Origin: an uncultured Ruminococcus sp. | GTDB taxonomy: Bacteria > Bacillota > Clostridia > Oscillospirales > Acutalibacteraceae | Direction of reading: 5' to 3' | NCBI GenBank assembly: GCA_964646975.1 | Contig: CAZYGJ010000013.1 | Span: forward strand, 2,466-66,465 | Length of the DNA: 64,000 nt | Shown here: piece after piece, positions 3,264 through 64,000 of the stretch | Layout: each line of letters starts with the position of its first letter | Position numbering within the stretch: position 1 is the stretch's first letter | Translations under genes and position numbers: made by a program | Notes under the pieces: model-generated | Databases searched by the model: none | The model's input: only the letters and a program-made list of their open reading frames with translations | What the model was told of the DNA's origin: nothing

Positions 3264-3880
3264 TGCTGCGACGGCAATCCCTCAGTCAGCTTCGCTGACA
3301 GCTCCCTTTGCACAAGAGAGCCTTGAAAGGTAGCACATTTTAATAACAATGATAGCTGTGAAAAAGTTTTCAGTTATTCTATTGTAGGAAATGTTATATT
3401 TAAATAATACGCTACTGCGACAGACAATCCCTCAGTCATTTTGCAGGCAAAATGACAGCTCCCTTTGCACAAGGGAGCCGTGAAAAGTTGCATATTTCGG
3501 ATAAATTGATAGATATGGAAAAGTTTTCTGATAGCTGAAAGTATAGTTTTTTTGCTCAACATTTCCGCAAAATCAAAGCCTCCCTTGTGTAAAGGGAGGT
3601 GGCAAAAATCGAAGATTTTTGACGGAGGGATTGAAAGCGTTTATGTTAGATGAACGTTAAAATTTAAAACCAAAGCTTCCACACGCACCAAGCCCTCACT
3701 TGAGGGAGGTGGCACGACGAAAGTCGTGACGGAAGGGTGAGCAAAGGAAATGGAGTTAATCAGTTACCCAAAATCATCATTGAGGGAATAAAGCTTCATA
3801 ATCACGGAAGCAATGCAGTGTGCGGACGGGTGTAATTTTTTAAAAATATATCAAACTCAACTGCGGTGAAATGCACTAAA
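3264..3880. repeat. Mosaic REP-like array 1
   Basis: Double-hairpin repeats at 3275-3322 and 3425-3479 (+), 3578-3633 and 3692-3741 (-), ~80 bp module near 3812-3877, linkers shared with the other arrays. Confidence 0.9.
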
Positions 3881-3995
3881 AGCAAAGAACCGTACAGGGG
3901 TCTGTACGGTTCTTCGCAAGGGGTTAGATAAGGAAATGGGTATGAGTGGAACGGATGCTTTCGCATCCAAGTGGAAAGTTAGTTAAACCGCCGAT

Positions 3996-4829
3996 TCAGG
4001 CGGATTTGTCGCTGTTTGACACACGCTTTTTCGGAATCCTGATTGTGTATTCAATAAAATTTTCGTTGTCTGTTTTGTTTGATTGAGCGTTAATTCCCGA
4101 AAGCCTCATCGTGTCAATAGCTTTGTTGATTGTGTTTAAAAAAATTCTTACGTCTTTTATCACCGCTTTACTGCTGCCCTGTTTTTTGTCGATTTTGGGG
4201 CTTTGTGTTGTTGTTGCACAGATTAGGCTCTCGGCTTGCCCAACGTTGAGGTTGTCGGAGATTATCCTTGACAATACTTCTCGCCGCAAATGCTCGTCCT
4301 CGATTTTCAGCAACGCTCGTGCGTGCCGTTCGGTGAGGTTGGAGCTTTCGATAAGCTCCTGTTCCTCGTATGTAAGCCTCAAAAGTCGCAGTTTGTTGGC
4401 TATGGTGGATTGCGATTTTCCGAGCTTGCGTGCTGTTTGCTCCTGAGTCAGACCATAACGGCGAATCAGCTTTGAAATTCCTCTTGCTTCCTCAAAAAAT
4501 CCGAGGTCGCAACGCTGGAGATTTTCAAGCAGAGCATAAACCGCCGATTCCTTGTCTGTGCATTTGATTATGATACAGGGAACTTTTTTCAGCCCTGCCG
4601 CAACCGCCGCCCTGAGCCGACGCTCGCCTGCAATCAGCTCGAACTCGGTTGCAGTTGCTTTTCGCACGGTTAGCGGCTGCAAAATTCCGTTTTCGGCTAT
4701 TGACTGTGAGAGCCTTGCAAGCTGTTCGGCATCAAATTGCTTGCGTGGTTGGGCTTTGTTCGGTCGAATTTTAATTATCGGTATTTCAGAGATTATGTTT
4801 TCGTTTTTAACTAAAAAATTCAACCGCAT
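3996..4829 (-). CDS. noc: ParB-family protein, Noc-like
   Basis: QPRKQF, GILQPLTVR, AGERRLRA, ENLQRCDL; canonical position between rsmG and parA. Confidence 0.75.
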   Translation of the reverse strand: MRLNFLVKNENIISEIPIIKIRPNKAQPRKQFDAEQLARLSQSIAENGILQPLTVRKATATEFELIAGERRLRAAVAAGLKKVPCIIIKCTDKESAVYALLENLQRCDLGFFEEARGISKLIRRYGLTQEQTARKLGKSQSTIANKLRLLRLTYEEQELIESSNLTERHARALLKIEDEHLRREVLSRIISDNLNVGQAESLICATTTQSPKIDKKQGSSKAVIKDVRIFLNTINKAIDTMRLSGINAQSNKTDNENFIEYTIRIPKKRVSNSDKSA

Positions 4830-4986
4830 TCACCCCGTATCGTTTAGCTCAGGGGTTGTCCCTGTGCTATTATAATACCACGGAGCGAGTGCGGTCTTTG
4901 TCAAATCGTGTGCAATTTTTATATATAGTTTTGGTATTAATTGGTAATTTCCCGATTTTTTTGTCGAAGCCTGTCTGTGAGCCTGA

Positions 4987-5700
4987 TTATAATGGGGCAG
5001 ATTTAATTTTTGCGGAGTTGCGTGGATATTTTTCGGGAGTGGGCTGAACCTTTTCTATTTGAATAACAGCACGTTCGCCGCCGTCAAGCGGAAGCAAAAA
5101 CTTCTGCACGTTCAAAAGCTTTCCGCCCAATGCCTGCACAGCACGCTTTGCACCGTCAAGCTCCAAATCCGCATCCTTGCCCTTGTAGGCTATGAAGCTA
5201 CCGCCCAAGCGAACATACGGCAAGCAGTATTCGCAAAGCACGTTTAGCCTTGCCACCGCACGAGAAACAGCAAAATCATAGGTTTCTCGCAAATCAATGC
5301 TTTGACCGCCGTCTTCGGCACGGCTGTGGATAAGCTCGGCGTCAAGCCCAAGCTCGTCAAGCACCGTCTGCAAAAACACAAGCCGTTTGTTTAGGCTGTC
5401 AAGCAGGGTAAGCCTTAGGTCGGGACGGGCGATTTTCAGCACTATACCGGGGAATCCCGCACCTGTGCCAACGTCAATAATTCGGCTGTTTTGGGGAATA
5501 TCAACGCAATCAAGCCCCGAAAGGCTGTCTGCAAAATGCTTGACGGCAACTTCTTTCGGCTCGGTAATGGCGGTGAGGTTGATTTTTTCGTTCCAGCTTA
5601 CAAGGAGCTTGTAATACGCCTCAAGCTGAGCAAGCTGAGTGTCATTAAAGCTTGTGTTAAAGTCGGCACAAGCCTCCAAAATATAGCTTTTAATCTCCAT
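4987..5700 (-). CDS. rsmG: 16S rRNA m7G527 methyltransferase
   Basis: NLTAIT, HFADSL, DVGTGAGFPG, SRAVA motifs; follows mnmG. Confidence 0.96.
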   Translation of the reverse strand: MEIKSYILEACADFNTSFNDTQLAQLEAYYKLLVSWNEKINLTAITEPKEVAVKHFADSLSGLDCVDIPQNSRIIDVGTGAGFPGIVLKIARPDLRLTLLDSLNKRLVFLQTVLDELGLDAELIHSRAEDGGQSIDLRETYDFAVSRAVARLNVLCEYCLPYVRLGGSFIAYKGKDADLELDGAKRAVQALGGKLLNVQKFLLPLDGGERAVIQIEKVQPTPEKYPRNSAKIKSAPL

Positions 5701-7648: not shown

Positions 7649-7790
7649 GTAGGGAACTGTCTTGACCGTTACGTACACCGCGTTTTATTCAAGCATTTTT
7701 GCCGCCTCTCTCATCATATGGAGGCTTGGTGCGTGCGGAAGCTTTGGTTTTAAATTTTAACGCTCATATAACATAAACGCTTTCTCTCCG
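7649..7790. repeat. Degenerate repeat remnant between mnmE and mnmG
   Basis: ttcaagcatttttgccgcctc, ggcttggtgcgtgcggaagctttggttttaaattttaacg and ataacataaacgctttc match array modules with many mismatches; GTAG-led imperfect palindrome at 7649-7672. Confidence 0.65.
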
Positions 7791-7800
7791 TCCTGCAAAG

Positions 7801-11919: not shown

Positions 11920-11993
11920 ACTGAAAACCTCCCTTCAAAATATAACCTTGCAATATAGCATTATACCTTAGTTTTGCGTTTTCGTCAACACTT

Positions 11994-13372
11994 TTTTGCA
12001 TTTTTGTACATTTCACCGCAGGAATGTTTGATGTGCTTTCAAAGGCGTAAACACGTCCGAACACTGCATCTAATTCAAACATTTTTGTGCATTTCACCGC
12101 AGGAAGCTTTGATGTGCTTTCAAAGCTATGAACTCGTCCTAATACTGCATTTAAGTTATAATTTAGATGTCACTTTTCAAGGCTCTCTTGTGCAAAGGGA
12201 GTTTTTGTGCATTTCATCGCAGTAATGTTTGATGTGATTTCAAAGGCGTAAACACGTCCAAACACTGCATTTAATTCAAGCCTTTTGCCTACAAAATGAC
12301 TGAGGGATTGCCTGTCGCAGTAGCGTATTATTTAAATTTAACATTTTCTACAATAGAATAACTGAAAACTTTTTCACAGCTATCATTGTTATTGAAATAT
12401 GAACACTTCCAAGGCTCCCGCTTGAGGGGAGCTGTCAGCGAAGCTGACTGATGGGTGGACACTGCATTACTTCCGTGATTATGAAGCTTTATTCCCTCAA
12501 TAATGTTTTTGAAAAAATTTTAACTCCATTCTCTCAGCTCACCCTTCCGTCACGACTTTCGTCGTGCCACCCTCCCTCAAGTGAGGGCTTGGTGCGTATG
12601 GAATTTTTTGCTTGAAAATCTGACGCTAATCTAACAGAAATGTTTACAATCCCTCCGACAAAAATTTTTGTCTATTCAGCGTAGGCAGGTTATATTTAAA
12701 TCCAACATAACATTCTCGTCCTAATACCACATTTAGTTCAAGCATTTTTGCCACCTCCCTTTACACAAGGGAGGCTTTGATTTTGCGGAAATGTTGAGCA
12801 AAAAAACTATACTTTCAGCTATCAGAAAACTTTTCCATATCTATCAATTTATCCGAAATATGCAACTTTTCACGGCTCCCTTGTGCAAAGGGAGCTGTCA
12901 TTTTGTCTACAAAATGACTGAGGGATTGCCTGTCGCAGTAGCGTATTATTTAAATTTAACATTTCCTTAGCTCACCCTTCCGTCACGACTTCGTCGTGCC
13001 ACCCTCCCTCAAGTGAGGGCTTGGTGCGTATGGAATTTTTTGCTTGAAAATCTGACGCTAATCTAACAGAAACGCTTTCAATCCCTCCGACAAAAATTTT
13101 TGTCTATTCAGCGTAGGCAGGTTATATTTAAATCCAACATAACATTCTCGTCCTAATACTGCATTTAATTCAAGCATTTTTGCCACCTCCCTTTACACAA
13201 GGGAGTTTTTGTGCATTTCATCGCAGTTGTGTTTGATAATAATTCAAAGTTTACACCCGTCCGCACACTGCATTTTGGTTATAATTTAAATGTCACTTTC
13301 CAAGGCTATCTTTATTATTGAAATGTGCTACCTTCCAAGGCTCTCTTGTGCAAAGGGAGTTTTGCCCATTTC
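11994..13372. repeat. Mosaic REP-like array 2 (largest)
   Basis: Tandem 81 bp modules at 12000 and 12081; about 8 whole or partial double-hairpin repeats in both orientations; internal ~235 bp near-duplication (12537-12770 vs 12970-13203). Confidence 0.92.
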
Positions 13373-13428
13373 AGTGAATTAAAACAATGCTTTCAAAATT
13401 TTTCATTGCAAAAAGATAAAATTAAGTA

Positions 13429-16035: not shown

Positions 16036-17090
16036 TTTTGCCTATTCAACGCAGGTGGATTGTCAGCGTTTCTGTTAGATTAGCGTCAGATTTTCAAGCA
16101 AAAAATTCCATACGCACCAAGCCCTCACTTGAGGGAGGGTGGCACGACGAAGTCGTGACGGAAGGGTGAGTTGAGAGAATGGAGTTAAAATTTTTTCAAA
16201 AACATTATTGAGGGAATAAAGCTTCATAATCACGGAAGTAATGCAGTGTCCACCCATCAGTCAGCTTCGCTGACAGCTCCCCTCAAGCGGGAGCCTTGGA
16301 AGTGTTCATATTTCAATAACAATGATAGCTGTGAAAAAGTTTTCAGTTATTCTATTGTAGAAAATGTTAAATTTAAATAATACGCTACTGCGACAGGCAA
16401 TCCCTCAGTCATTTTGTAGACAAAATGACAGCTCCCTTTGCACAAGGGAGCCGTGAAAAGTTGCATATTTCGGATAAATTGATAGCTGTGGAAAAGTTTT
16501 CTGATAAATTAAACCTTAGATTTTAGTTGAACATTTCCGTAAAATCAAAGCCTCCCTTGTGTAAAGGGAGGTGGCAAAATGCTTGAATTAAATGCAGTGT
16601 TAGAACGTGAATGTTATGTTGGATTTAAATATAACCTGCCTACGCTGAATAGACAAAAATTTTTGTCGGAGGGATTGAAAGCGTTTCTGTTAGATTAGCG
16701 TCAGATTTTCAAGCAAAAAATTCCATACGCACCAAGCCCTCACTTGAGGGAGGGTGGCACGACGAAGTCGTGACGGAAGGGTGAGCTAAGGAAATGTTAA
16801 ATTTAAATAATACGCTACTGCGACAGGCAATCCCTCAGTCATTTTGTAGACAAAATGACAGCTCCCTTTGCACAAGGGAGCCTTGGAAAGTGACATCTAA
16901 ATTATAACCAAAATGCAGTGTTCGGACGTGTTTACGCCTTTGAAATCACATTAAACCTACCTACGCTGAAATACACAAAAACGTTTGAATTAAATGCAGT
17001 GTGCGGACGTGTTCACAGTTTTGAAAACACATTAAACTTAACTGCGGTGAAATGCACAAAAATGCTTGAATTTCGCCGCAGTAATGTTTA
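16036..17090. repeat. Mosaic REP-like array 3
   Basis: Same modules as array 2 in opposite overall orientation; 16070-16425 is nearly the reverse complement of 12283-12639. Confidence 0.92.
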
Positions 17091-17099
17091 ATATTCTTT

Positions 17100-18767: not shown

Positions 18768-21308
18768 TTATTCGTTCACTTCGGAATTATCGGAATTTTC
18801 AGCATCGTCGGCAACCTCTGCCGTCTTCTCACCGCTTTCCTCGGTCGGCTCTGTGCTTTCCTCCTCGGCTTCGTGCGGAGCACGAGCCACAGTCACAACC
18901 TTGTCGCCGTCGCCTGTTTTCATCAGCGTAACGCCCTTTGCGGGACGTGAACAAATTCTGATGGTTTCGGCGGCAATTCTGATGATAATTCCGTCCTGAG
19001 AAATGATTATAACGTCGTCGTCAAGGTCTACCACCTTGATTGCGGCAACATCGCCGTATTTTTCAACGTGATAGTTGGTAAGACCCTTGCCGCCTCTGCT
19101 TTGAACACGATAGTCGTCGGGACTTGAAAGTCTGCCGTAGCCTGTTTCGGACACGGTGAGAACATAACCGCCCTCACGCACAACGCTCATTCCCACAACG
19201 CAGTCGCCCTCCTTGAGCTTCAACGCCTTAACACCACGAGCCTGTCTGCCCATAGGACGAACGTCGGTTTCATTAAAGCGAATTGCAACGCCCTTTTTGG
19301 TTGCGACAATAACCTGACTGTTGCCGTCGGTCATTCTTACCCACGCAAGCTCGTCGCCGTCGTTTAATTCAAGTGCAATCAAGCCGCCCTTGCGTGCCGT
19401 GTTGTATGCACTGAGTGCAATCCTCTTGATAATGCCATGACGGGTTACCATAATCAGGTATTTTTCCTCGTCAAACTCAGGCACTCTTATCATTGAAGTC
19501 ACCTTTTCGTCGGTAGAAAGAGGCAAAAGATTAGCAATGTTAATGCCCTTTGACTGTCTGCTTCCTTCGGGAACTTCATAGCATTTAAGCCTGTAAACCC
19601 TGCCCTTGTCGGTAAAGAACAGAACATAGTCGTGCGAATTGATGATAAACATTTCGGAGGCAACGTCCTCCTCACGCCTTGACATACCCGAAACACCACG
19701 TCCGCCTCGGCGTTGCAGCTTGTAGGTGTCAACCGCAAGTCGCTTAACATAACCGAACTGAGTGAGCGTAAGCACACATTCCTCCTGCGGAATAAGGTCT
19801 TCAATGTCAACCTCACCGCTGACTGAGCAAATCTCGGTTCTTCTGGGGTCTGCATACTTGTTGCGAAGAGCGATAAGCTCCTCTTTAACGATTTCAAGCT
19901 TTCGTGTTTCGCTTGCAAGAATTTCAAGATATTCCTTAATCTTTGCCTGCAAAGTGGCAATTTCCTCGTCAATCTTGGCACGCTCCATATTTGTGAGCTG
20001 TCCCAATCGCATCTGAACAATCGCCTGAGCCTGAATCTCGTCAAGACCGAAGCGTTCCATAAGTGCGGCTCTTGCACTCGGCAAATCGGGGCTTTTGCGA
20101 ATCAATGCGATAACCTCGTCGATAAAGTCAATCGCAATCTTCAAGCCCTCCAAAATATGCTCTCTGTCCTGAGCCTTTTTAAGGTCAAACTCGGTGCGGC
20201 GGCGGATAACCTCCTCCTGAAACTCAATGTAGCACTTGAGCATTTCCTTGAGTGTAAGGATTTTCGGCTCGCCGTCAACAATGGCAAGCATAATCGCACC
20301 AAAGGTAGTTTGAAGCTGAGTATAAGAAAACAACTGGTTAAGCACGATTTGAGGCGAAGCGTCACGCTTTACGTCAATTTCAATGTGCATACCGATTCTG
20401 TCGGAGTGGTCTTCAATATTTGAAATGCCCTCAATCTTTTTGTCTTTAACAAGGTTTGCAATGGTTTCAATCAGCCTTGCCTTGTTCACCTTGTAGGGCA
20501 GCTCGGTTACAATAATCTTAAATCTGCCGTTTTTAGCCTCAACGATTTCGGTTTTGGCACGAACGGTAATCTTACCCCTACCTGTTGCATAAGCGGCTCT
20601 TATTCCGCTTCTGCCCATAATTATGCCGCCTGTCGGAAAGTCCGGACCCGGCAACGCCTCCATAAGCTCGGCAACCTCGGCGTCGGGGTTGTCAATCAGC
20701 GTGCAAACAGCGTCAATGGTTTCGCCCAGATTGTGGGGCGGAATTTCGGTTGCCATACCAACGGCAATACCGCTTGAACCGTTTACAAGCAGGTTTGGAA
20801 AACGGCTCGGCAAAACAACAGGCTCTTTAAGTCTGTCATCGTAGTTGGGGATAAAGTCAACTGTGTTTTTGTCGATGTCGGTGAGCATATCCATAGATAT
20901 TTTGCTCATTCTTGCTTCTGTGTAACGATAAGCAGCAGGCGGGTCACCGTCAACCGAACCAAAGTTTCCGTGACCGTCAACCAGCATATATCTCATCGAA
21001 AAGTCCTGAGCAAGTCGAACCATTGCGTCATAAACCGAGGTGTCACCGTGAGGGTGATACGAGCCCAGCACAGAACCAACGGTGTCGGCACATTTGTGGT
21101 AAGGCTTTGACGGCTCAAGACCTCTTTCAAACATTGTGTAGAGAATACGACGGTGAACAGGCTTCAAGCCGTCACGCACGTCGGGCAAGGCTCTTGAAAC
21201 GATAACACTCATCGAGTAATCAAGAAAGCTCTTACGCATCTCGCTTTGCAGGTCAACGTCAATTATTCTTTTTTCTGTCTGCTGTTCATTCATCTGTTCA
21301 TTATCCAT
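18768..21308 (-). CDS. gyrA: DNA gyrase subunit A
   Basis: [22 protein letters not shown] active-site region, GyrA-box QRRGGRG. Confidence 0.98.
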
Positions 21309-21335
21309 TTTTTACCTCTTTTATATAATCAGCGT

Positions 21336-45321: not shown

Positions 45322-45327
45322 TTAAAT

Positions 45328-45909: not shown

Positions 45910-45955
45910 TTGGTAAGGACGAGGTCACGGGTTCAAATCCCGTTATCAGCTCCAA
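45910..45955 (+). other. attR (3' half of tRNA-Thr)
   Basis: Identical to 40031-40076. Confidence 0.93.
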
Positions 45956-46206: not shown

Positions 46207-46307
46207 TGAAAGCTTCGGCGGGAGTTTCCCGACCAAGACATTATTAAAGCAATGTATGATGAGCTTTCTGTGTCTAAAAGGAAATCGTAAGATTGGGAGG
46301 AGATTAT

Positions 46308-46688: not shown

Positions 46689-46824
46689 CCCTGATTCCAG
46701 CTTCACTTTTTACAATTTGTCATTTAATATATGCAATAGCAAATTTTATAATTTGATAAAATTCAAGTCTCAGAACGGGAGATTTCCACGACTATCACCC
46801 TAAATAAAATATGTGACTTTTCCT

Positions 46825-47500: not shown

Positions 47501-47646
47501 TAGCTAATTCTTCACCGTGGCAATAAAATGCTTGCAATAACGTTGATAAAATATTATAATAAAATAATGAATATCTATATATTAGGAAAGCTGTGGGCAA
47601 AAGCATTGTCGCTCGCAGTTAAATTTGACGGAACGGGAGTAGTTTT

Positions 47647-51002: not shown

Positions 51003-51405
51003 GATTTTGCACAAAAACTCCCCTCAAGCTGGAGCCTTGGAAATGTTCATATTTCAATAACAATGATAGCCTTGGAAAGTGACATTTAAATTATAACCAA
51101 AATGCAGTGTTAAGACGCGTTCGCTACTTTGTAAACATATCAAATTTAACTACGTTGAAATGCACAAAAACTCCCTTGTGTAAAGGGAGGTGGCAAAAAT
51201 GCTTGAATTAAATGCAGTGTTTGGATGTGTTTGTGCCTTTGAAATCACATTAAACCTTACTGCGGTGAAATGCACAAAAATTTTTGTCGGAGGGATTGAA
51301 AGCGTTTATATTATATGAACGTTAAAATTTAAAACCAAAGCTTCCGCACGCACCATGCCCTCACTTGAGGGAGGGTGGCACGACGAAGTCGTGACGGAAG
51401 GGTGA
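51003..51405. repeat. Mosaic REP-like array 8
   Basis: Two ~80 bp modules and three hairpin repeats in minus orientation. Confidence 0.9.
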
Positions 51406-51496: not shown

Positions 51497-53767
51497 ATGT
51501 CAAACAAAAAGAAAAAAGTCACGGCAGTTGCGGCAATAGCCACAGCGGCGGCACTCTTGCTCGGCGGAACGTTTGCTTGGCAGAGTATCAGCCAAACGGC
51601 TCTCAACGAAACCGATGACATCATCAACCCCGGCGGACGTTTGCACGACGATTTTGACGGCTCTAACAAGGACGTTTACGTTGAAAACTTTGCAGATAAC
51701 CCGATTTTCGCCCGTATTCGTCTTGATGAATATTTTGAAATCACGATGAACAAAAACACCCCTGCCGAGGCCACTGAGGTTATCACAACAGGAGCGACAA
51801 AGGGCGACACAGACACCTATTTGACCCACTATTTTGACCAAGAAAACTTGACCGACACATATTGGGAGTGGGCAACAGGCGGCTCAACAACCTATATGCC
51901 GACTTTCAACAAGAACAAGGACAGCTTAAAGGCAGACATTAACGGCACATACGATATGGATTTCGACGATTATGTTGCATATACTGACGGCGAAACAAAA
52001 ATCGACAATGCAGTTTATGATGCAGATTCAAACAGCGTTGAGGACGAAAATGTCACCACCGTTGAAGAAACCCATTATGCAACAACAACTATCAACGGCG
52101 ACTTGATGAGTATGCAGGAGTGGATTGATGCAGGCTCGACCGCAGGCGATTATTGGGTATATGACACCGACGGCTGGGTATATTGGGCAAATGCAATTCA
52201 GCCAAATACAGCAACAGGATTGTTGCTTGACGGCATATCGCTGAAAGACAAAATGGACGACAGCTATTACTATGCAATTAACGTTACTGCTCAGTTTGTC
52301 ACAGCAGATGACGTCGGCAAGGACGACAACACAGGCTTCTATGACACCACAGCAGGCACCGTTCCGAGTGCAGATGCAGAAAACTTACTCCGTGCAATCG
52401 GCGTTGATATGGGAGAAGAACCCACAACCGAGCCGATAACCGAGCCGCTGCCCACAGGCGACACGGTTTACAGCGTTTACACAACTAACGCAGACGGAGA
52501 TTATGATATGATTCTGTTCTCGTCTGCCGACAACATCACAAAGGCTCAGGCTGCTGCCATTGCAGGAATAAGTGAGGATGCGGTTGCTTTTTATTCGGAT
52601 ATGAATATGACCTTTTCAAACGGCGAAGAACTAACCATAGACGAAGATAAAGCTATGTCAATAATAGAAAACAATATGAAGGTTTCGTCAGTATCGTTTG
52701 CAAACGAAGTTAAGCCTACAAATATGAACTACTACTTTGGTTTTGTAGGCGAAAACGTTTCAAAAGCTCCGACGTTTGATTTTACAAATCTTGACACCTC
52801 AAGTGTTACAAGTATGGAATCTACATTTGGAAACTGCACGGCAACAGAGCTTGACGTTTCTTCTTTTGACACATCAAATGTTACCAATATGTCAAGTATG
52901 TTCTCAAAAATGAAAGAAATGACAAGCTTGACATTAGGTGATAATTGGGACACTTCAAAGGTTACCGATATGAACAATATGTTTAGATATTGTCAGAAAT
53001 TGACGGAGTTTGATTTATCTGATTTTGACACATCTAAGGTAACCGATATGTCGGGCATGTTCCATTATTGCGACGGTTTGACTGACTTGAACGTGTCATC
53101 GTTTAATACATCAAACGTTACGGATATGAACCGTATGTTTGCGGATTGCAAAAACTTAACCTCGTTGAATCTGACTTCGTTTGACACATCTAAGGTAACT
53201 GATATGTCGTATTTATTTGGCGGAGCGGGAAAAATCTCCGACTTAGACTTATCATCATTTGATACATCTAATGTAACCAATATGTCCAATATGTTCAATT
53301 GCTGCGAAGGCTTGACCGACTTAGATGTAGCTTCATTCAATACATCAAAAGCTACTGATATGTCCGATATGTTTGCTAATTGCAAAAACTTAATCTCGCT
53401 GAATCTGACGTCCCTTGATACAAGCGGTGTGACAAATATGTCAATGATGTTTGCTAATTGCAAAAACTTAACCTCGTTGGATCTGACGTCCTTCGATACA
53501 AGCCGTGTAACAGATATGTACTATATGTTTTCCGAGATGTCTAATCTTACAAGCATTACACTCGGTAACCAATGGGAGACCGCGTCCGTGACAACAATGC
53601 GTGGAATGTTTTATTCTACTAAAAACCTATCATTGGATTGCTCGGAATGGGATATAAGTATTGTTGGCGATTATGAATACTTTGATGAATACGAAGATTA
53701 TTCCAGCGGCTCTTTGGAATACAAAGATATTGAAGGCATAATCGAACCTGCTTGGTTAAACGAGTAA
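51497..53767 (+). CDS. Exported protein with SipW-type signal peptide and BspA-like (DUF285) leucine-rich repeats
   Basis: LLLGGTFAW signal motif; about ten ~25 aa repeats of type L.L.SFDTS.VTDM..MF in the C-terminal half. Confidence 0.8.
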   Translation: MSNKKKKVTAVAAIATAAALLLGGTFAWQSISQTALNETDDIINPGGRLHDDFDGSNKDVYVENFADNPIFARIRLDEYFEITMNKNTPAEATEVITTGATKGDTDTYLTHYFDQENLTDTYWEWATGGSTTYMPTFNKNKDSLKADINGTYDMDFDDYVAYTDGETKIDNAVYDADSNSVEDENVTTVEETHYATTTINGDLMSMQEWIDAGSTAGDYWVYDTDGWVYWANAIQPNTATGLLLDGISLKDKMDDSYYYAINVTAQFVTADDVGKDDNTGFYDTTAGTVPSADAENLLRAIGVDMGEEPTTEPITEPLPTGDTVYSVYTTNADGDYDMILFSSADNITKAQAAAIAGISEDAVAFYSDMNMTFSNGEELTIDEDKAMSIIENNMKVSSVSFANEVKPTNMNYYFGFVGENVSKAPTFDFTNLDTSSVTSMESTFGNCTATELDVSSFDTSNVTNMSSMFSKMKEMTSLTLGDNWDTSKVTDMNNMFRYCQKLTEFDLSDFDTSKVTDMSGMFHYCDGLTDLNVSSFNTSNVTDMNRMFADCKNLTSLNLTSFDTSKVTDMSYLFGGAGKISDLDLSSFDTSNVTNMSNMFNCCEGLTDLDVASFNTSKATDMSDMFANCKNLISLNLTSLDTSGVTNMSMMFANCKNLTSLDLTSFDTSRVTDMYYMFSEMSNLTSITLGNQWETASVTTMRGMFYSTKNLSLDCSEWDISIVGDYEYFDEYEDYSSGSLEYKDIEGIIEPAWLNE

Positions 53768-53983
53768 TTTAAAGCACATTAAATCACGCCCCTCAGACGA
53801 GGGGCGTTGTTAGTTCAATGTTTCTTCGTTTTCTTCAAATAATCTTTTGCACATTTTCACCCTATTACATTATACCATATGACCTTTGTCTGTCATATTA
53901 TAAAAAAGAAGATACTAATTTCTTAATATCTCCTTACAACTTGCTATTTTATCCTACTTATATATTGTAATTTCTTGTTATAA

Positions 53984-54775
53984 TTATTTTAAAACAATGT
54001 TATGTGCTAAATTAGATATCCAGTGTGGAATAATAGCTCCATATAATGAATTTGTTTTTAAATAAATAAAATTAAAAATTATATGTGTAATAAATAAATC
54101 TACAATCCATCTCAAATTATTTATTGTTAAATCACTTAATGTCATTCCATAAGCTATCATTCTATAAGGGAAGTGCATTATAATAAACAAAATTCCGGTT
54201 AAACATATAGCAATATACTTGTTCTTAAAAAATCCATATATCCTTGTTCCAATATATCCTCTAAAAACAAGTTCTTCACAAACTGATACTAATAAATAAT
54301 AAATTATTAACATTGGAAGTTGTTCTAAAGGAACAAGCTTACTTCCGTTTACTAAATAAGATATACAGTTATTATAAGAGTAAAATATTGCAATTATTAC
54401 TCCTATAATAATACTCATTTTCCATTTACCTTTAAAAACACCTATTGTGTCGATCTTTTGCTTATTCAATTTAACAAATAGAATTGTAATAATTATCATT
54501 AATAAATTAGATACACAACCAAATATCATTATATTTTTATTTACAAAATCAAAATTATTTTGTAATATTCCAAGGATTGAATATTCAATTATTACAATTG
54601 CAAATAGTGCCAATGCTAATATTCCATCTTTTTTTGTATACTGTTTTAAATTATTATTATATTCTTCATTTGATTGTAATATTTTTAACATATTTCTCTC
54701 CGATTTAAAAAACACAAATTTTAATTTTTTGTTCAAAATAATATGCTTCATTTTTGCTATTTTGAATTGTTGCAT
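53984..54775 (-). CDS. CPBP/Abi family intramembrane (CAAX-like) protease
   Basis: EELVFRGY, F..H, H..SN motifs; multiple TM segments; very AT-rich. Confidence 0.85.
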   Translation of the reverse strand: MQQFKIAKMKHIILNKKLKFVFFKSERNMLKILQSNEEYNNNLKQYTKKDGILALALFAIVIIEYSILGILQNNFDFVNKNIMIFGCVSNLLMIIITILFVKLNKQKIDTIGVFKGKWKMSIIIGVIIAIFYSYNNCISYLVNGSKLVPLEQLPMLIIYYLLVSVCEELVFRGYIGTRIYGFFKNKYIAICLTGILFIIMHFPYRMIAYGMTLSDLTINNLRWIVDLFITHIIFNFIYLKTNSLYGAIIPHWISNLAHNIVLK

Positions 54776-55112
54776 TACTATAAATTAATATTTGTTTAAT
54801 AGGATTATATCATATTTTTTTAATGTTAGCAATTTCTAATTCTTCTAGTAGCACTTCAAATAATACCAAAGTATTATTTAATTCTTCCATTGATGTTCTA
54901 AGATAAGTAGATAATCTAAGCCGTTCAATAAAAATCTTCTATAAATTCATCGTATTTTTTATATCTTATCTCATCAAATCACCGACACGCCAAAAAAACA
55001 AGCGACAGCTTAATGCCCTCGCTTGTAATTTATCTATTCATTTTCGGGTTTACCTCAACTATTGAAATTGAGCCAAAAAACAAGCACCAACCGTTTGGCT
55101 GGTGCTTTAACT

Positions 55113-55189
<77 letters not shown>

Positions 55190-55374
55190 ATATTTATATG
55201 CTGTCCTGTACAGCTTTTTTATTATAGCACAAGCTCACACTGTTGTCAAGGGCTAATTTGTACTTACTTAATTATATGCTGTTTTCGGTGATATATTCCC
55301 ATAAAACCAGAAAATTTAATTAAATTTATGAGAATCAGCACTTCGGAATTTGAGCCGAAGTGCTGATTTGTTGT

Positions 55375-55830
55375 TTATTTGATTTTTTCCAAAGCTGGCA
55401 AAACTTCTTTAATCAGGCTGATTTTCGACCCCAACGCCATATGAGAAACAAAGCCGTGCGGAACGGGCGGATTTTTAAGATAGTCTTTCAAATCATTAAC
55501 GTCCATAGGCTTTTTGAACTCCAAGCAAAATTCTTCGTTGAGCGAAAAGAGATAACCGTCTTTCACGCCCCAGCCCTCGGAAACACCGAAATAACACCGC
55601 TTATCCTCCGTGCGGAAAATTCTTTCGTTATCACCAAGCTTACCGATGCAGATTACGGGCGTGCTTGACAGATGCTTGTCCCCTTGCACCTCCGAAAAGA
55701 ACAACGCTCCCTTAAAGCGGTCGTTCACGCTTACATCGTTGCTGTGATGACAAATTTCATAAAATTCTCTTTTCTTCAAATTTTTTACCGATAACATAAT
55801 CGTATCCTCCTTTAGATTTTTAAAACCCAA
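55375..55830 (-). CDS. Hypothetical protein
   Basis: 151 aa ORF (possible start 55797, with AAGGAGG SD); no recognisable motif. Confidence 0.55.
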   Translation of the reverse strand: MGFKNLKEDTIMLSVKNLKKREFYEICHHSNDVSVNDRFKGALFFSEVQGDKHLSSTPVICIGKLGDNERIFRTEDKRCYFGVSEGWGVKDGYLFSLNEEFCLEFKKPMDVNDLKDYLKNPPVPHGFVSHMALGSKISLIKEVLPALEKIK

Positions 55831-55841
55831 AAGAGCGACAA

Positions 55842-56002
55842 AAAACGCCCATCGTCAGACGGGCGTTATTGCTGATATTATGCCCATCATTCAAGCATTA
55901 CCACCTTTCCGTTCGGCAGGTTGGTGTGCGGTCAACGAGCTTGTCTCTCACGCACTCTTTATAGGTTAATTATATTTTACCGCCGAATTGTGAAAATGTC
56001 AA
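55842..56002 (-). promoter_or_regulatory. Promoter plus structured leader/attenuator (or remnant small-RNA locus)
   Basis: TTGACA-17-TAAAAT at 55974-56002; hairpins; terminator AACGCCC/GGGCGTT plus T tract. Confidence 0.5.
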
Positions 56003-56241
56003 CAGCATTTTTGTTCTTTCAACGCAAGCTCACCAAATGGACAAAAGTGTATAAATATTCATCGACTGTTAAGGCATATTGCTGAAAAACATTCCGATAT
56101 TTTGGTGAAAGTGATAAATATCTTGACACAATCACCCAATTATGCTATCTTTTTATAGTAATTTTATAGGAGGAAAATATGAAAAAACTTACAAAAATTG
56201 CGGCTGTTATTTCAATACATAGATTTTAAAAAATATAAAAT

Positions 56242-57033
56242 TTAATAATCTACGCCCTCTTGTTTTAGCATATTATCTTCAATTTTATAGTGTTTGGTAA
56301 TTTCCATATTATCAGCAACCCACAGTGCTAAATCGCCCGAAGAAAGTTCTGCATTATCGTCAAAAGCTCCGCATACGGAAAAATCGTCATCACGGTAGCA
56401 ATTAATAGCTTTATATGTTTTATCTATAATTATGTAGGAATATTCGACCGCAATAATATTTCCGTTCTTACCGTTATATTCACTGAAAGTAAAATCAAAT
56501 GCCCATTTTTTGTCATTCCATGACTCTGGCGTTGTAACATCTGGTGTACTTATATCGTTAACAAGCATATTAAAGTAATCCATAATGCTTTCAGGAGTTT
56601 CAAAAGTAACATCTGGGAAACTGTCCATTACCTTGCCTATGTTTATATATTCAATATTATCGCAAATTAAATCTTTAATACCATCATATTTGCCATTAAA
56701 TATATCTTTATAAGCTTGTTTATATTTGTCATCAATTGGCATTAGAGATGGAATGATATAGTTTTCTATACTTAACTTGTAGGGAGAAATTTTATCGCTG
56801 GCATTTGTTTCATTTGCTTTAGAACTAAAACAGGCAATAGAAACATAATCTTGAGTTAATACTTTCCAATCTGATGGCACGTCAAGTGAAAAAGTTACAT
56901 AATCTTCTTGGCTGTTTTTCGTTACCGTTTTTGTTTCTACATCAGGCTTAATAATGGTATTATTCTGCTGACATCCTACGAGTGAAATCATAAGCACGAT
57001 GGATATTATTGCTGATAAGAATTTGTTTTTCAT
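56242..57033 (-). CDS. Hypothetical lipoprotein
   Basis: Lipobox LVGC; AT-rich. Confidence 0.7.
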   Translation of the reverse strand: MKNKFLSAIISIVLMISLVGCQQNNTIIKPDVETKTVTKNSQEDYVTFSLDVPSDWKVLTQDYVSIACFSSKANETNASDKISPYKLSIENYIIPSLMPIDDKYKQAYKDIFNGKYDGIKDLICDNIEYINIGKVMDSFPDVTFETPESIMDYFNMLVNDISTPDVTTPESWNDKKWAFDFTFSEYNGKNGNIIAVEYSYIIIDKTYKAINCYRDDDFSVCGAFDDNAELSSGDLALWVADNMEITKHYKIEDNMLKQEGVDY

Positions 57034-57264
57034 TTGTATGCTCCTATTCCTATTATATATTTTAACTGAAAATTATTTGAGATTTTTTGATTTTATGCAT
57101 TTAATATAACTAAATTGTGATATTTATTATACTTCTTGTATTGCTTTTTGTAAAGTAATAATAAAAATAAAATTCAAACTTAATTAAAGTAATAAAGGTA
57201 AGTATATCAGGACTTATGCAAAGTTATGTGGGATATGTTTGTTCTACGAAAGGTGGCATAAGAT

Positions 57265-57609
57265 ATGGATATACTTGAAGATTTATATTATGGCAATTTA
57301 TTTCCTCATGAACAGTGTGAAAAGCTTGATGATGAGGTTAAGGAGCTATTGAAACTGCTCAACAGAAATGAAGAAAACCCCTCTGCCGAATCAGTCTTTG
57401 ATTCAGGCAGAGGGGTTCTGTATCCTCATTATTCAATTAAAACCAACCGCAACAGCGTTGCAGTTTCTTCTCTTTATCTCCTGCGTTACCTTTGCAACAT
57501 AATCCAAAATCAACTCTGCTTTGAAGAAAAGCAGAAAGAACAACGGACGGATAAAAAGTTGCAACAGAAGATTAATGATAAGAAACGAGATCGAGGATTG
57601 AAGATGTAA
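57265..57609 (+). pseudogene. Truncated/chimeric DUF6809-like ORF
   Basis: MDILEDLYYGNL..E start typical of that family, then interrupted by a strong inverted repeat (CCCCTCTGCC...GGCAGAGGGG, ~57377-57415). Confidence 0.4.
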
Positions 57610-57654
57610 TCACAGATTTAATGAATAAAGTTGGCAAAAGGGATTTTCTTTAAA

Positions 57655-58368
57655 TCAATCTAATATCGGTAAATTGTTTAAACATGGAGGTAGATGCATC
57701 ATATGATGGTCAGTCATTGGAGTTAAAATCATACCTCCCATTGTTAACCTTCCCCAAAATACTAATAACCATACCGAGCGAAAATCTGTTGTTACTCCAC
57801 CTTCTTCTAATATTCTCATTACCCATTCTTCCGGTACCATTGAATTTATCTGTACTAATGTTAGATTTCCTAATATATTACGTGTGTTTTTACCAACTGC
57901 GAGCATATATTCATGAAGAGCTTCAACGTTTATCTCTTTTCCAAACGCTATTGCTTCATCAAGTTCCAAAGCATTGCCTGTATCTGTAATAGGTGAACCA
58001 ATTTTTCTTTGCCATTCTTCATTGAATATTTGATTTTGATTTGCCATTAAAATATTGCTTACTAAATCTTCAATTCGATATGTATGCCAAAATTGCCAAC
58101 ACAAAGGAACGGTTCTAGTGCCTGCGTAATGTAAATCCACATCATAATCCTCTCTGGGCACTAATTCATTTTGATTGCCTTTTAACATATAATCCAAAAC
58201 ATAATCTGCAATAGTTTTTTCAGTTCTTCCAGAAATTTCAGCAGGATGCACCATAGCGTGAACTTCTAAAGTAAGTTCTCTTATTTTATCTATATCTGTT
58301 CCTTGTAATGCAAGTTTTAGTTCATTATATTTCTTCGTTATTGGATCAAATAATTCTTCCTTTGTCAT
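57655..58368 (-). CDS. DinB-superfamily-like protein
   Basis: FWHTYRIED and HHMMHL histidine motifs; helical. Confidence 0.6.
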   Translation of the reverse strand: MTKEELFDPITKKYNELKLALQGTDIDKIRELTLEVHAMVHPAEISGRTEKTIADYVLDYMLKGNQNELVPREDYDVDLHYAGTRTVPLCWQFWHTYRIEDLVSNILMANQNQIFNEEWQRKIGSPITDTGNALELDEAIAFGKEINVEALHEYMLAVGKNTRNILGNLTLVQINSMVPEEWVMRILEEGGVTTDFRSVWLLVFWGRLTMGGMILTPMTDHHMMHLPPCLNNLPILD

Positions 58369-58621
58369 AGGATTAACCTCCTGAAATTTATATTTTTTGA
58401 TCGATTATTTATAATTATCTTACCATATATATAGGAAATTGTCTATCAAAAAATCAGCTTACCACCAAGGGATAATTGCACCCAAACCGTGACGGGTGCC
58501 TCCTGTCATCATGCTAAGACAAGAACTACCCACTATAAGATATTACAGCAGAAAGAAAAAATATATTATACTCAAGGAAGTACATAACGCAAGCGGACGA
58601 GTGGTTACATTCGCCCGCTTT

Positions 58622-58686
58622 TTTGCAGTAATCTTCGATGTGATTTCAATGATGTGAACCCATCCGAACACTGCATTTAACTCAGG
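58622..58686 (+). repeat. Solo degenerate ~80 bp module
   Basis: gcagtaatcttcgatgtgatttcaa...ccgaacactgcatttaa. Confidence 0.6.
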
Positions 58687-61624: not shown

Positions 61625-62074
61625 ATGGATAATATGGAACTCAAAATCAAAAAACTCAAAGACAACGCCAAAATCCCCAAGCGTGCAACAAACGGCTCAG
61701 CCGGAATGGACCTTTATGCCTGCATTGACAGCAGTGTAACACTTGCTCCCGGTCAGCTTACAATCATACCCACGGGTATAGCAATTGAGCTGCCCGATAA
61801 CACCTGTGCCGCATTTTTGTATGCACGCAGCGGACTCGGAGTTAAGCACGGAATCTGCCTTTCAAACGGCGTGGGCGTGATTGACAGCGATTACAGAGGC
61901 GAGGTTTGCGTGGGACTTTGCAACGTGTCAGACAAGCCCTATGTTATTGAGCCTGACGAGCGTGTGGCACAAATGGTAATTTCACCCGTGCTTACTCCTG
62001 AAATCACCGAGGTTGCGGAGCTTTCCGACACCGTGCGTGGCGGAGGCGGCTTTGGCTCAACGGGCAGAAGCTGA
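61625..62074 (+). CDS. dut: dUTPase
   Basis: AGMDL, ARSGLG, GVIDSDYRGE, RVAQM, RGGGGFGSTG. Confidence 0.97.
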   Translation: MDNMELKIKKLKDNAKIPKRATNGSAGMDLYACIDSSVTLAPGQLTIIPTGIAIELPDNTCAAFLYARSGLGVKHGICLSNGVGVIDSDYRGEVCVGLCNVSDKPYVIEPDERVAQMVISPVLTPEITEVAELSDTVRGGGGFGSTGRS

Positions 62075-62159
62075 CTTTTGTTCGACAAAATACCGTTGCT
62101 TCGGCAGTATTATTGCTATATAATTAATTTTTGCAATCGGCAAAGAAGGAGCTGTTTAA

Positions 62160-63179
62160 ATGTTTTCATTTTCTAAGGATATAGGAATCGACCTCGGCAC
62201 GGCGAACACACTTGTGTGTTTAAAGGGCAAGGGAATAATTTTGCGAGAGCCGTCTGTGGTGGCGGTTGATATGCGTAGCGACAACGTGCTTGCCGTGGGA
62301 GCACAGGCAAAGGATATGATAGGCAGAACGCCCGGCTCAATCGTTGCGGTCAGACCGCTAAAGGACGGCGTTATTGCAGACTTTGACATAACAGCAAAAA
62401 TGCTTCAGCATTTTATCAAAAAAGCCGTCAAGCCGGGAATTTTCAGCAAGCCGAGGGTGATAATCTGTATGCCTACAGGCGTTACCGAGGTGGAACGCAA
62501 GGCGGTTGAGGACGCAGCGTATCAGGCAGGAGCAAAGCCGCCTGTTGTGCTGATAGAAGAACCTATGGCGGCGGCTATCGGTGCAGGCTTGCCGGTTGAC
62601 GAGCCGACGGGCAGTATGGTGGTTGATATAGGCGGCGGCACAAGCGAGGTGGCTGTGATTTCGCTGGGCGACATTGTTACAGCCTGCTCTGTCAGGGTTG
62701 CAGGCGACAAGTTTGACGAGGCGATAATGACCTATATCAAGAAAAAATACAACCTGCTTATCGGTGAACGCACGGCAGAGGATATAAAAGTAAAAATCGG
62801 CTCTGCCTATCCTCAGGAAAACGAAAAAAGTATGGTTGTAAAGGGCAGAAACCTTGTTGACGGCTTGCCCAAGGACATCACGATTTCGGCACAAGAGGTC
62901 AGAGATGCACTTGCAGACCCGCTTATGACGATAATCGAGGCGGTTAAAACCACGCTTGAAAAAACTCCGCCTGAGCTTTCGGCAGACATCATCGACCACG
63001 GAATTATGCTCACGGGCGGCGGTGCGTTGCTAAAGGGCATTGATATGCTTGTGATGCAGCAAACGGGTATGCCTGTGCATATTGCCGAAAAGCCGCTTGA
63101 CTGTGTGGTGGACGGTGCAGGCAAAAGACTTGTGAAGCCCGCAGGAATTCAGTATAAACACAACCGCCGAGGCTTTTAA
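62160..63179 (+). CDS. mreB: Rod shape-determining actin homolog MreB/Mbl
   Basis: [37 protein letters not shown]. Confidence 0.93.
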
Positions 63180-63196
63180 GGAAAGCTTTTGCTCGC

Positions 63197-64000
63197 ACCA
63201 AAGCTTCCACACGCACCATGCCCTCACTTGAGGGAGGGTGGCACGACGAAGTCGTGACGGAAGGGTGAGCTGAGGAAATGTCATATTTAAATAATACGTT
63301 ACTGCGACAGGCAATCCCTCAGTCATTTTGCAGGCAAAAGGCTTGAATTAAATGCAGTGTTTGGACGTGTTTACGCCTTTGAAATCACATCAAACATTAC
63401 TGCGATGAAATGCACAAAAACTCCCTTTGCACAAGGGAGCCTTGAAAGGTAGCATATTTCAATAACAATGATGGCTGTGGAAAGTGACATTTAAATTATA
63501 ACCAAAATGCAGTGTGTGGACGGGTGTAAACTTTGAATTATTATCAAACACAACTGCGATGAAATGCACAAAAACTCCCCTCAAGCGGGAGCCTTGGAAA
63601 TGCTTTATCTTTAGATTAAATTGATAGCTGTGGAAAAGTTTTCTGATAGCTGAAAGTATAATTTTTCGCTCAACATTTCCGCAAAATTCAAGCCTCCCTT
63701 GTGTAAAGGGAGGTGGCAAAAATGCTTGAATTAAATGCAGTGTTAGGACGATAATGTTATTTTGATTAAAATATAACCTGCCTACGCTGAATAGACAAAA
63801 ATTTTTGTCGGAGGAATTGAAAGCGTTTATGTTATATGAACATTAAAATTTAAAACCAAATCTTCCACACGCACCAAGCCCTCACTTGAGGGAGGGTGGC
63901 ACGACGAAGTCGTGACGGAAGGGTGAGCTGAGGAAATGTCATATTTAAATAATACGCTACTGCGACAGGCAATCCCTCAGTCATTTTGCAAGCAAAATGA
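63197..64000. repeat. Mosaic REP-like array 9 (runs off the window end)
   Basis: Starts ~18 bp after the mreB stop; ~63312-63426 is the reverse complement of the 115 bp unit flanking the DUF559 gene. Confidence 0.92.

Follow-up and report, generated by a model that had tools for sequence, protein, structure and literature searches.

What are the dense, hairpin-rich arrays that occupy intergenic regions of an uncultured Ruminococcus sp., and which activity could have spread them and kept them alike? The question is raised by a 64-kb stretch of its DNA (GenBank assembly GCA_964646975.1, contig CAZYGJ010000013.1, positions 2,466 to 66,465 of the forward strand), hereafter called the window, which carries nine such arrays and, within one of them, a gene for a DUF559 (PF04480) protein. 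Small intergenic hairpin repeats are common in bacteria, as exemplified by repetitive extragenic palindromes (REPs), bacterial interspersed mosaic elements (BIMEs) and Neisseria intergenic mosaic elements (NIMEs); to our knowledge, only the GTAG class among them has an identified partner enzyme, namely the REP-associated tyrosine transposases (RAYTs). The analysis described here leads to the view, held with modest confidence, that the arrays are probably a lineage-specific, REP/BIME/NIME-like expansion of DUF559 cassette ends lacking the open reading frame (ORF), homogenised by recombination, and in which we infer a role for the nuclease. A DUF559 gene as the partner of REP/BIME-like repeats is seemingly undescribed, and no published link between DUF559 and repeats was found in the literature searched.

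Hairpin Ends of the DUF559 Cassette

Array 5, located upstream of gyrB, is broken by 350 bp of single-copy DNA (24709-25057) coding for the DUF559 protein. The ORF lies exactly between two double hairpins of the repeat kit, H3 and H2, each composed of a G and an S hairpin and corresponding to the left end (LE) and right end (RE) of a cassette, respectively:

24567 to 25052, minus strand: DUF559 ORF (PF04480, Vsr-like endonuclease), GTG start, 161 aa, with its single-copy body at 24709-25052.
25058 to 25113, minus strand: H3, the LE, consisting of G hairpin, S hairpin and then GGAGGGATTG with the Shine-Dalgarno sequence GGAGG.
24578 to 24708, minus strand: H2, the RE, consisting of CAATCCCTCAGTC, S hairpin and G hairpin, and interrupted at 24599-24679 by an A element (81 bp).

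The last ~47 codons of this ORF are a read-through of H2 and of the A inserted in it. Elsewhere in Clostridia the intact cassette measures ~460 bp and is made of CCAAA, LE, a 122-aa DUF559 ORF, RE and TTGG. Its upstream side reads CCAAA-GCCTCCCTTGTGTAAAGGGAGG-TGGCACGGCGAAGCCGTGAC-GGAGGGATTG, GCCTCCCTTGTGTAAAGGGAGG being the G hairpin, and the ATG comes only 2-3 nt after GGAGGGATTG, which identifies the GGAGG as a Shine-Dalgarno sequence. The downstream side reads CAATCCCTCAGTC, S hairpin, AGCTCCCTTTRCACAAGGGAGCC-TTGG, with the last codons (KQSLSQ...) and the TGA stop placed inside the RE. In duplex form, the LE-RE junction has the sequence GAGGGATTG-NN-CAATCCCTC.

The tie between gene and hairpins extends to the homologues. 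A search with the DUF559 protein returned >8,000 homologue clusters at E <= 1e-10, the best 120 being ~80% identical and the named close ones belonging to Oscillospiraceae, Clostridia and Candidatus Faecousia metagenome-assembled genomes. Within these best 120 clusters, the sequence QSLS encoded by CAATCCCTCAGTC ends the protein in 119, and the tails QLR, QPxG, QKSxDF or H... found in 111 are translations of four S-hairpin types, the stem sequence varying among homologues and the hairpin being kept. The surroundings of the gene were compared in five other Clostridia lineages (L032, L039, L053, L057 and L043). Both LE and RE bracket DUF559 in the first four; in L043 the RE is intact and the LE next to the gene is decayed, and an intact left-end-oriented double hairpin, with G and tail of RE type and an S3-type stem, is found one gene upstream. 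The six cassette neighbourhoods known from six lineages are upstream of gyrB (the window), between HAD and HTH-proS, between GNAT and AAA_18-proS, between AAA_18 and ileS, between a hypothetical gene and BcrAD, and between pth and uvrA, a variety of sites that hints at a mobile cassette. An AAA_18 (kinase-like) gene adjoins the cassette in two lineages (L043, 5245-5314 and 5392-5916; L039, 2961-3461); in L043 the intact left-end-oriented double hairpin stands on one side of it and the DUF559 ORF on the other, as though the gene were cassette cargo.

By their polarity, H3 and H4 are left ends, and H1, H1' and H2 are right ends. The ORF-less combinations H4-L4-H1' and H3...H2 of the arrays consequently show the same end polarity as H3-DUF559-H2, that is, the polarity of cassettes without the ORF. 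There are 27 hairpins in the window versus only the cassette's own pair per 20-kb sample in other species, from which it follows that the hairpin expansion is lineage-specific. An earlier reading of the window made from the letters alone (the sequence-only reading) recognised neither the hairpins as DUF559 cassette ends nor the gene copy in array 5.

In single-stranded form, two neighbouring hairpins are predicted for each of H2, H3 and H4 (z = -4.5, -6.3 and -3.1, respectively), H1 being weaker, and the linkers and A fold no better than shuffles. Among S-hairpin variants, changes on both sides are seen at 6 of 10 pairs and 89.5% of cells are paired, the observed covariation being reached by none of 500 shuffles. 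The S hairpin reads CGTC-AAAAATC-TTC-GATTTTT-GCCACC in H3 and CGTC-ACGAC-TTC-GTCGT-GCCACC in H4; in H1 and H2, AGTC...GAC is fully paired next to the S stem, without the CCA tail. S stems measure 5-8 bp, with loops of 2-4, and start with A-T pairs only in S3.

Organisation of the Nine Arrays

The arrays were re-bounded after self-BLAST of the window. All nine lie outside genes and, with the refined boundaries, sum to 7,293 bp, or 11.4% of the window (12.8% for the self-BLAST repeat blocks when three small solitary copies are included). They share a kit formed by the double hairpins H1, H1', H2, H3 and H4 (~55 bp each, G plus S), the linkers L1-L5 (58-98 bp) and the 81-bp element A with its variant A2. 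In the list below, self-BLAST blocks are given in parentheses and double colons mark an A or A2 inside a hairpin:

3251 to 3885, plus strand: array 1 (3251-3881), H1-L1-H2-L2-H3-L3-H4-L4-A, flanked by the terminator of a noc/parB-like gene and by parS/soj.
11992 to 13373, minus strand: array 2 (11992-13373), the largest, with ~2.3 turns of the cycle, two H3::A2, one H2::A and a terminal L5-A-A; its neighbours are the rnpA/rpmH side and guaB.
16036 to 17095, plus strand: array 3 (16057-17072), which begins at the terminator of a ROK gene, closes with L5-A-A and holds the reference unit.
16121 to 16735, within array 3: reference unit, 615 bp, H4-L4-H1'-L1-H2-L2-H3::A2-L3'.
21336 to 21924, minus strand: array 4 (21283-21924), L2-H3::A2-L3-H4-L4-H1'-L1(part)-L5-A, its A end adjoining the gyrA 5' region.
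24478 to 25627, minus strand: array 5 (24425-24708 plus 25058-25627), H4-L4-H1'-L1-H2::A-G3-L2-H3-(DUF559 gene)-H2::A-L5-A, upstream of gyrB.
31983 to 32594, minus strand: array 6 (31987-32594), H4-L1'-H2::A-L1-H1-L5-A-A, between convergent genes.
46839 to 47501, plus strand: array 7 (46839-47501), A-G3-L2(part)-H3-L3'-H4-L1'-H2-L5-A-A, upstream of ddl.
51008 to 51405, plus strand: array 8 (51008-51405), H1'(part)-L1(part)-L5-A-H3::A-L3-H4, upstream of a PARCEL surface protein gene.
63197 to 64000, plus strand: array 9 (63197-64000), L3(part)-H4-L1'-H2::A-L1(part)-L5-A-G3-L2-H3::A2-L3-H4-L1'-H2, running into the window end.

When all nine were mapped on the reference unit, the module order inside every array proved to be one cycle, H4-L4-H1'-L1-H2-L2-H3-L3, of ~540 bp, with a single orientation for all modules of any one array and the polarity pattern LE-L4-RE-L1-RE-L2-LE-L3 repeated throughout. 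What varies is the orientation of whole arrays (plus at 3251, 16036, 46839, 51008 and 63197; minus at 11992, 21336, 24478 and 31983), the points at which the cycle is entered and left, a recurrent deletion of 186 bp (L4:6 to L1:52), the presence of A or A2 within the hairpins H2 or H3 and how many A copies stand at one end, H2-L5-A(-A) closing most arrays on the downstream side of the cycle. Seven of the nine are co-oriented with the neighbouring genes and the GC-skew arm, which is not significant.

The sequence-only reading had reported nine intergenic arrays covering ~11% of the window and drawing on a small shared kit of hairpin variants, one short module and fixed linkers, all of which is borne out by self-BLAST and by the refined boundaries, with four to five hairpin variants and the 81-bp module counted. 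It had further described the order and orientation of the modules as different in every array, which does not hold: the arrays are a conserved higher-order repeat and not a freely shuffled, combinatorial grammar.

Chance is excluded as the source of the repetition, since the H4 20-mer occurs 12 times in the window versus 0.00 expected, and the A motif 20 times versus 0.36. Copies are also near-identical. The 115-bp unit singled out by the sequence-only reading indeed has perfect copies at 24594 and 25226, a perfect inverted copy at 63311-63425 and a copy with one mismatch at 12197; the H3 copies at 3578, 25058 and 47053 are 100% identical, and arrays lying 3-13 kb apart share blocks of 300-400 bp with 98-98.5% identity.

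Copy Number and Variation between Strains

Sequencing-run look-ups found the organism in gut metagenomes of several studies, often at >100x depth. In eight DNA runs from four studies, unique genes were covered at even depth and the modules at 15-60x single-copy depth, H4 reaching ~30-60 copies per genome equivalent. As 12 H4 copies fall within the 64 kb of the origin-proximal window, the arrays must be clustered around the origin, unless diverged copies are undercounted by the depth measure. One run labelled as a metatranscriptome (X13) was rejected as evidence of transcription, its depth being flat across genes and its repeat-to-unique ratio DNA-like.

The contigs available for comparison are short-read metagenome assemblies, which break at every array. 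The same array sites recur in three independent ENA assemblies and in many Logan assemblies, with contigs ending at or entering the arrays. Such breakage probably accounts for the outcome of scans of GTDB species representatives and JGI metagenome contigs, where the H4 20-mer gave only single chance matches without further homology. IMG/VR viral contigs had no match for H4 or A, and a spurious 60-aa L4/H4 ORF used as protein query recovered no further array-bearing contig.

Orthologous sites in close strains differ in module content. In two samples (L024 and L025), array 1 has ~500 nt of flank that differ from the window by a few bases, and its interior L3-H3-L2-H2-L1 is replaced by L3'-H3::A2-A-L5, the arrangement of array 2 in the window; since sequence specific to array 1 is found within 141 nt of each junction, the variant is not the product of assembler joins. 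In strain L002, whose genes are 97.7-99.4% identical to those of the window, the H2 beside DUF559 carries no A insertion and two tandem A copies precede gyrB versus one in the window (array 5), the element inside H3 is of A type versus A2 type (array 4), and array 3 is ~300 bp longer. Array 7 of L016 has about half the window length.

The linkers vary in a concerted manner. One L4 variant is found in window arrays 2-5, and another, different at ~14 of 80 positions, in both L002 orthologues of arrays 3 and 4; a third is kept in array 1 of all strains compared. Paralogous arrays within a strain are thus more alike than orthologues between strains, as is characteristic of gene conversion, or of a variant that spreads and replaces the others. 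Taken together with flanks that are 98-99.5% identical, yet enclose arrays that differ between strains, these comparisons support a turnover of the arrays by recombination or gene conversion, in line with the ongoing copying that the sequence-only reading had postulated and had proposed to check at such orthologous sites.

The cassette is polymorphic as well. The DUF559 ORF is at single-copy depth in runs X1, X2, X5 and X7, at zero in X12 (single-copy depth ~190) and near zero in X11 and X14. In a 7.1-kb contig of L002 (3190-3480), the guaB upstream region is joined directly to the DUF559 locus, the two being 12 kb apart in the window; the junction may reflect mis-joining at modules that both have in common, or else a genuine rearrangement or circle junction mediated by the repeats.

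The A Element

A is represented by at least 24 copies with conserved ends, (TTTTTG)TGCATTTCAYCGCAG ... ACACTGCATTTAATTCAAGC, and one end of most arrays is capped by A. Three copies or remnants stand outside the arrays:

7690 to 7799, minus strand: degenerate remnant with the A 3' end, a decayed G hairpin and L3, between mnmG and mnmE.
34975 to 35039, minus strand: solitary truncated A, upstream of infB.
58608 to 58684, plus strand: solitary A without its first ~18 nt, fused directly to the T-tract of an intrinsic terminator.

Nineteen copies whose 5' end is intact were scored for what precedes the 5' T-run: this is the GGGAG of a G hairpin in 8 and the 3' end of another A in 6, while at least one A copy, and the A2 variants in split H3, come after one half of an S3 hairpin. 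The 5' end of A or A2 is also fused to the T-tracts of terminators, namely those of noc and the ROK gene and a further one at 58590. On the opposite strand to the array orientation, a G hairpin together with A has the form of an intrinsic terminator, and terminator-like sites (a G hairpin followed by a T-tract) show a modest enrichment there (3 against 1.0 and 4 against 0.6) in the arrays. When A is placed within H2 or H3, 6-7 nt of the hairpin are missing by comparison with empty sites (CTGTCA, TCTTCGA). The possibility that A is itself a hairpin or a MITE (miniature inverted-repeat transposable element) with its own inverted ends was discarded, as its fold does not surpass that of shuffles (z -0.4, 0.1) and the predicted stem is not kept among copies.

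Two side observations concern A termini. An identical stretch of ~53 bp shared by gyrA and gyrB (21283-21335 and 24425-24477), comprising 5' untranslated region, ribosome-binding site and first codons (ATGGATAATGA...), is contiguous with A, which means that homogenisation extends ~25 nt into the coding sequences of both genes. At the 5' end of the first A of array 6 (31983-32009), a 10-bp tandem repeat, TGCATTTTTG x2.7, suggests slippage at the A terminus.

The DUF559 Protein

The protein matches PF04480 with E 1e-28 to 3e-30. The best solved-structure matches of its AlphaFold model (pLDDT 88.7) are 3HRL, a DUF559 protein of Neisseria gonorrhoeae, then I-Bth0305I with its catalytic domain (3R3P), and Vsr-like restriction enzymes and Vsr. 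The second-best of them, 3R3P (Foldseek E 7e-5, TM 0.65/0.79; profile E 0.004), makes the homing endonuclease I-Bth0305I the closest functionally characterised structure of a protein that is predicted to be Vsr-like in fold. Vsr, DUF559, DUF2726 and I-Bth0305I have been grouped in one PD-(D/E)XK clade (PMC3424549). D51, E62, D64 and H68, the putative catalytic residues of a fold that homing endonucleases also use, are invariant in 32 Clostridial and Neisserial sequences. I-Bth0305I is a mobile, selfish nuclease of the Vsr/DUF559 clade (PMC3424549); unlike the DUF559 cassette, it is found in a group I intron of a phage, possesses additional DNA-binding domains and has no hairpin ends reported.

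Neisseria offers a second DUF559 gene in a repeat setting. The gene of the 3HRL family is found in the carA-carB intergenic region (L058, 2450-4000, N. meningitidis; L060, 3400-4250, N. sicca), within an array of tandem ~290-bp units with GC-rich hairpins of the CTCCC...GGGAG type and uptake sequences. As in array 5, the gene lies inside a hairpin-repeat array, the flanking repeats being direct there and inverted here.

Comparison with Known Repeat Systems

The arrays resemble BIMEs and NIMEs, and the gene with its hairpins resembles the association of RAYTs with REPINs (REP doublets forming hairpins), with membership in each class failing on a defining feature. With the BIMEs of E. coli and relatives they share the intergenic location, polar hairpins in defined relative orientation, few fixed linkers, tandem units as in BIME-2 and a copy number that varies between strains. 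The analogy drawn in the sequence-only reading is thus fair as regards fixed-polarity hairpins and fixed linkers; "more combinatorial" than BIMEs, as it had put it, they are not, the order being fixed. Unlike BIMEs, the window arrays have a double hairpin of ~55 bp, linkers of 58-98 bp and a unit of ~540 bp, and occur in a Firmicute host. REPs of the GTAG type are imperfect palindromes of 20-40 bp with an unpaired GTAG head, which is absent from all window hairpins examined (CGTC in H3/H4, AGTC in H1/H2). BIMEs are paired with a RAYT and the window arrays with a DUF559 PD-(D/E)XK nuclease, no RAYT (Y1 HUH) gene being found in the 64-kb window.

In the REPIN/RAYT system, the gene, as a rule present once, has on its two sides the hairpins that also occur scattered through the genome, in inverted pairs without an ORF and in clusters (Bertels and Rainey 2011, PMC3116915). 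The DUF559 cassette repeats this scheme, its gene being flanked by the same hairpins that are dispersed without the ORF in the genome. Unlike the HUH Y1 RAYTs, DUF559 is Vsr-like in predicted fold and has a candidate role only, and few or no dispersed copies were seen in the other lineages sampled.

CGTC-tagged REPs, for which no dedicated enzyme is known (Di Nocera 2013, PMC3733652), carry a terminal CGTC (or TGTC/CCTC) and a short CCA-like tail, with a stem of 8-9 bp that starts with two A-T pairs and a loop of 4-5 (PMC3733652). The S hairpins of H3 and H4 likewise start with CGTC and end with GCCA(CC), those of H1 and H2 having instead the paired AGTC; with stems of 5-8 bp and loops of 2-4, the window hairpins are shorter than the published families. 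In the mosaic elements of Neisseria, dRS3 (ATTCCC-N8-GGGAAT) flanks RS units of 50-150 bp (PMC3733652). These elements also form large intergenic clusters, of mosaic order versus the fixed order seen here, and the resemblance is architectural only, no dRS3-like sequence having been found in the window. In the N. meningitidis sequence L058, six dRS3 copies lie upstream of carA. The carA-carB gene and the CGTC resemblance may serve as a lead, not as a test.

A modular intergenic repeat is also known from another Firmicute, the BOX elements of Streptococcus pneumoniae, with the structure boxA-boxB(n)-boxC. Like the window arrays, they have a fixed module order and a variable internal module number; unlike them, they have other sequences, no double-hairpin ends and no associated nuclease gene.

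Origin of the Arrays and Competing Explanations

The favoured explanation can be set out as a series of conditional steps. ORF-less left (H3, H4) and right (H1, H1', H2) ends, with AT-rich interiors and the spacers L1-L4, would have built up the higher-order unit of ~540 bp, which would have settled as partial or multiple turns at many intergenic sites while one ORF-bearing cassette was kept in array 5. The second element, A, would land beside sites made of a hairpin plus a T-tract, be they G hairpins, S hairpins or gene terminators. Homologous recombination and gene conversion between arrays, together with unequal exchange within them, would change array content, keeping paralogous blocks 98-100% identical and making orthologous arrays diverge between strains. 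By analogy with homing and with RAYTs, copying would be started by DUF559 breaks at hairpin or cruciform ends. A more specific proposal, which can only be offered tentatively, is that this DUF559 subfamily is a repeat-associated nuclease, a RAYT counterpart of Vsr/PD-(D/E)XK fold that may nick or cut its own double-hairpin substrates, seed ORF-less dimers and drive gene conversion, with runaway arrays in this lineage.

Several points weigh against this explanation. DUF559, of only 122 aa, is not a known transposase, and the cassette appears single-copy and stable in most other species. Target-site duplications were not seen at array ends or around A. The linkers have no convincing homology to the ORF (L4, p = 0.14), L3' alone matching it (18/19, p ~0.003 versus simple shuffles); as decayed ORF remnants, L1, L2, L3, L4 and L5 were rejected, and for L3' there is a weak hint. 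Despite the absence of the ORF (at 90% likeness or more), X11, X12 and X14 keep the repeats at 10-26x, so that the nuclease is not needed for array maintenance, unless a diverged copy exists elsewhere. A conventional transposase flanked by H hairpins, for example a RAYT, may be encoded in another part of the genome. Finally, the interiors of the short-read comparison contigs could be partly mis-joined, the array-1 variant being anchored at both ends within 141 nt.

The main alternative, which we regard as rather unlikely, reverses the relation between gene and hairpins. The inverted double-hairpin dimer would be primary, REPIN-like and moved by something else or kept by the host, and DUF559 would be a secondary homing parasite inserted in the LE-RE centre. 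This would agree with the homing endonuclease as closest characterised fold and with the exact coincidence of the GGGATTG and CAATCCC ends with the ORF boundaries. An ORF-less dimer with the palindromic centre GGGGGATTG-TTG-CAACCCCTC does exist in L032-L038; in L032 (3712-3815) it lies ~900 bp from the same species' DUF559 cassette, and its stems differ from the cassette ends yet are paired. Arrays that persist while the ORF is present in some strains and absent from others (X11, X12 and X14 lacking it) also speak for this alternative. Opposed to it is the fact that, throughout the lineages examined, LE contains the ribosome-binding site of the ORF and RE its stop, which argues for a long co-evolution and not for a recent insertion. 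Moreover, the 20-kb samples from outside the window's lineage show hardly any hairpins apart from the gene.

Less likely than a homing parasite is that the hairpins serve the DUF559 transcript as cis-regulatory or structural elements (stabilising stem-loops at its 5' and 3' ends, or a pairing of the Shine-Dalgarno sequence with its RE complement), and that the arrays are a satellite-like by-product of slippage, unequal crossing-over and RecA-mediated conversion without a dedicated enzyme. This explanation, which we judge improbable, draws on the GGAGG located 7 nt before the ATG and its perfect 9-nt complement CAATCCCTC at the 3' end, on the higher-order tandem structure and recurrent deletion of the arrays, on their concerted variants and on their remaining in strains without the ORF. 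It has to face the occupation, in either orientation, of no fewer than nine distinct intergenic sites within 64 kb, a dispersal beyond what slippage provides. Nor does a regulatory role find much in the arrays: Rfam 15 gave no gathering-score match in arrays or cassette loci, and promoter-like sites are not enriched (5 against 3.8; 3 against 2.6), for which reason the arrays were also dismissed as promoter carriers.

It is still less likely, and in our estimate very improbable, that the arrays are nested classical MITEs moved by a conventional transposase encoded elsewhere in the genome. A lies inside H2 and in the H3 loop, the same H2 being without A in another strain, and the LE/RE pairs resemble terminal inverted repeats, which H4-L4-H1' and H3...H2 have in common with the ORF-bearing H3-DUF559-H2. 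However, the filled sites are 6-7 nt short (CTGTCA, TCTTCGA) where a MITE would show a target-site duplication, independent insertions would not give a conserved cyclic order, and no transposase is found in the window, save the integrase of a tRNA-Thr island. For a MITE, the autonomous partner would encode a transposase; the partner here encodes a Vsr-like nuclease, from a family not known to have transposase activity. As to an assembly artefact of collapsed or mis-joined repeats, hinted at by the contig breaks at every array and by the L002 contig joining guaB to the DUF559 locus, possibly through repeats, it is excluded for practical purposes by the recurrence of array sites and modules in runs of several studies and in the three independent ENA assemblies, and by a module depth (15-60x) expected of real multicopy DNA.

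Other Features of the Window

The window is a Firmicute-type, origin-proximal region, with serS, soj/spo0J-like genes, rsmG, mnmG, mnmE, guaB, gyrA, gyrB, infB, a dnaA/dnaN-sized gene pair, ddl and murF-like genes, besides an S-box riboswitch and the tRNA-Thr island with its integrase; the contig it belongs to measures 66,989 nt. Between array 1 and soj/parA there is a perfect parS site (TGTTTCACGTGAAACA) at 3173-3188, with a copy of the half-site after it. Directly downstream of array 8, the PARCEL-repeat surface protein gene (51497-53767) contains an internal 78-bp tandem repeat at 53340-53530.

The tRNA-Thr island (40000-46700; GC ~36%) encodes a tyrosine integrase, a helix-turn-helix repressor-like gene, a HIRAN-domain protein and a PBECR3 nuclease-like protein, carries a skipping-rope RNA at 45352-45430 and is arranged differently in strain L016. 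A stretch of low GC (22-35%) at 53900-58400 holds a CAAX-protease-like gene, two unannotated ORFs of 237-263 aa, a tRNA-Met and, on the minus strand, an S-adenosylmethionine (SAM) riboswitch at 55881-55967.

Significance

In these Clostridia, a very widespread and highly conserved gene of unassigned role is built into an inverted pair of double hairpins, with its ribosome-binding site and stop inside them. DUF559 thereby gains a concrete candidate substrate, and the organism provides a natural system in which array turnover can be compared between strains with and without the gene. If true, the partnership of DUF559 with hairpins might explain hairpin arrays for which no enzyme is at hand, such as the CGTC-type REPs, the Neisseria gene in the carA-carB array being a case in point.

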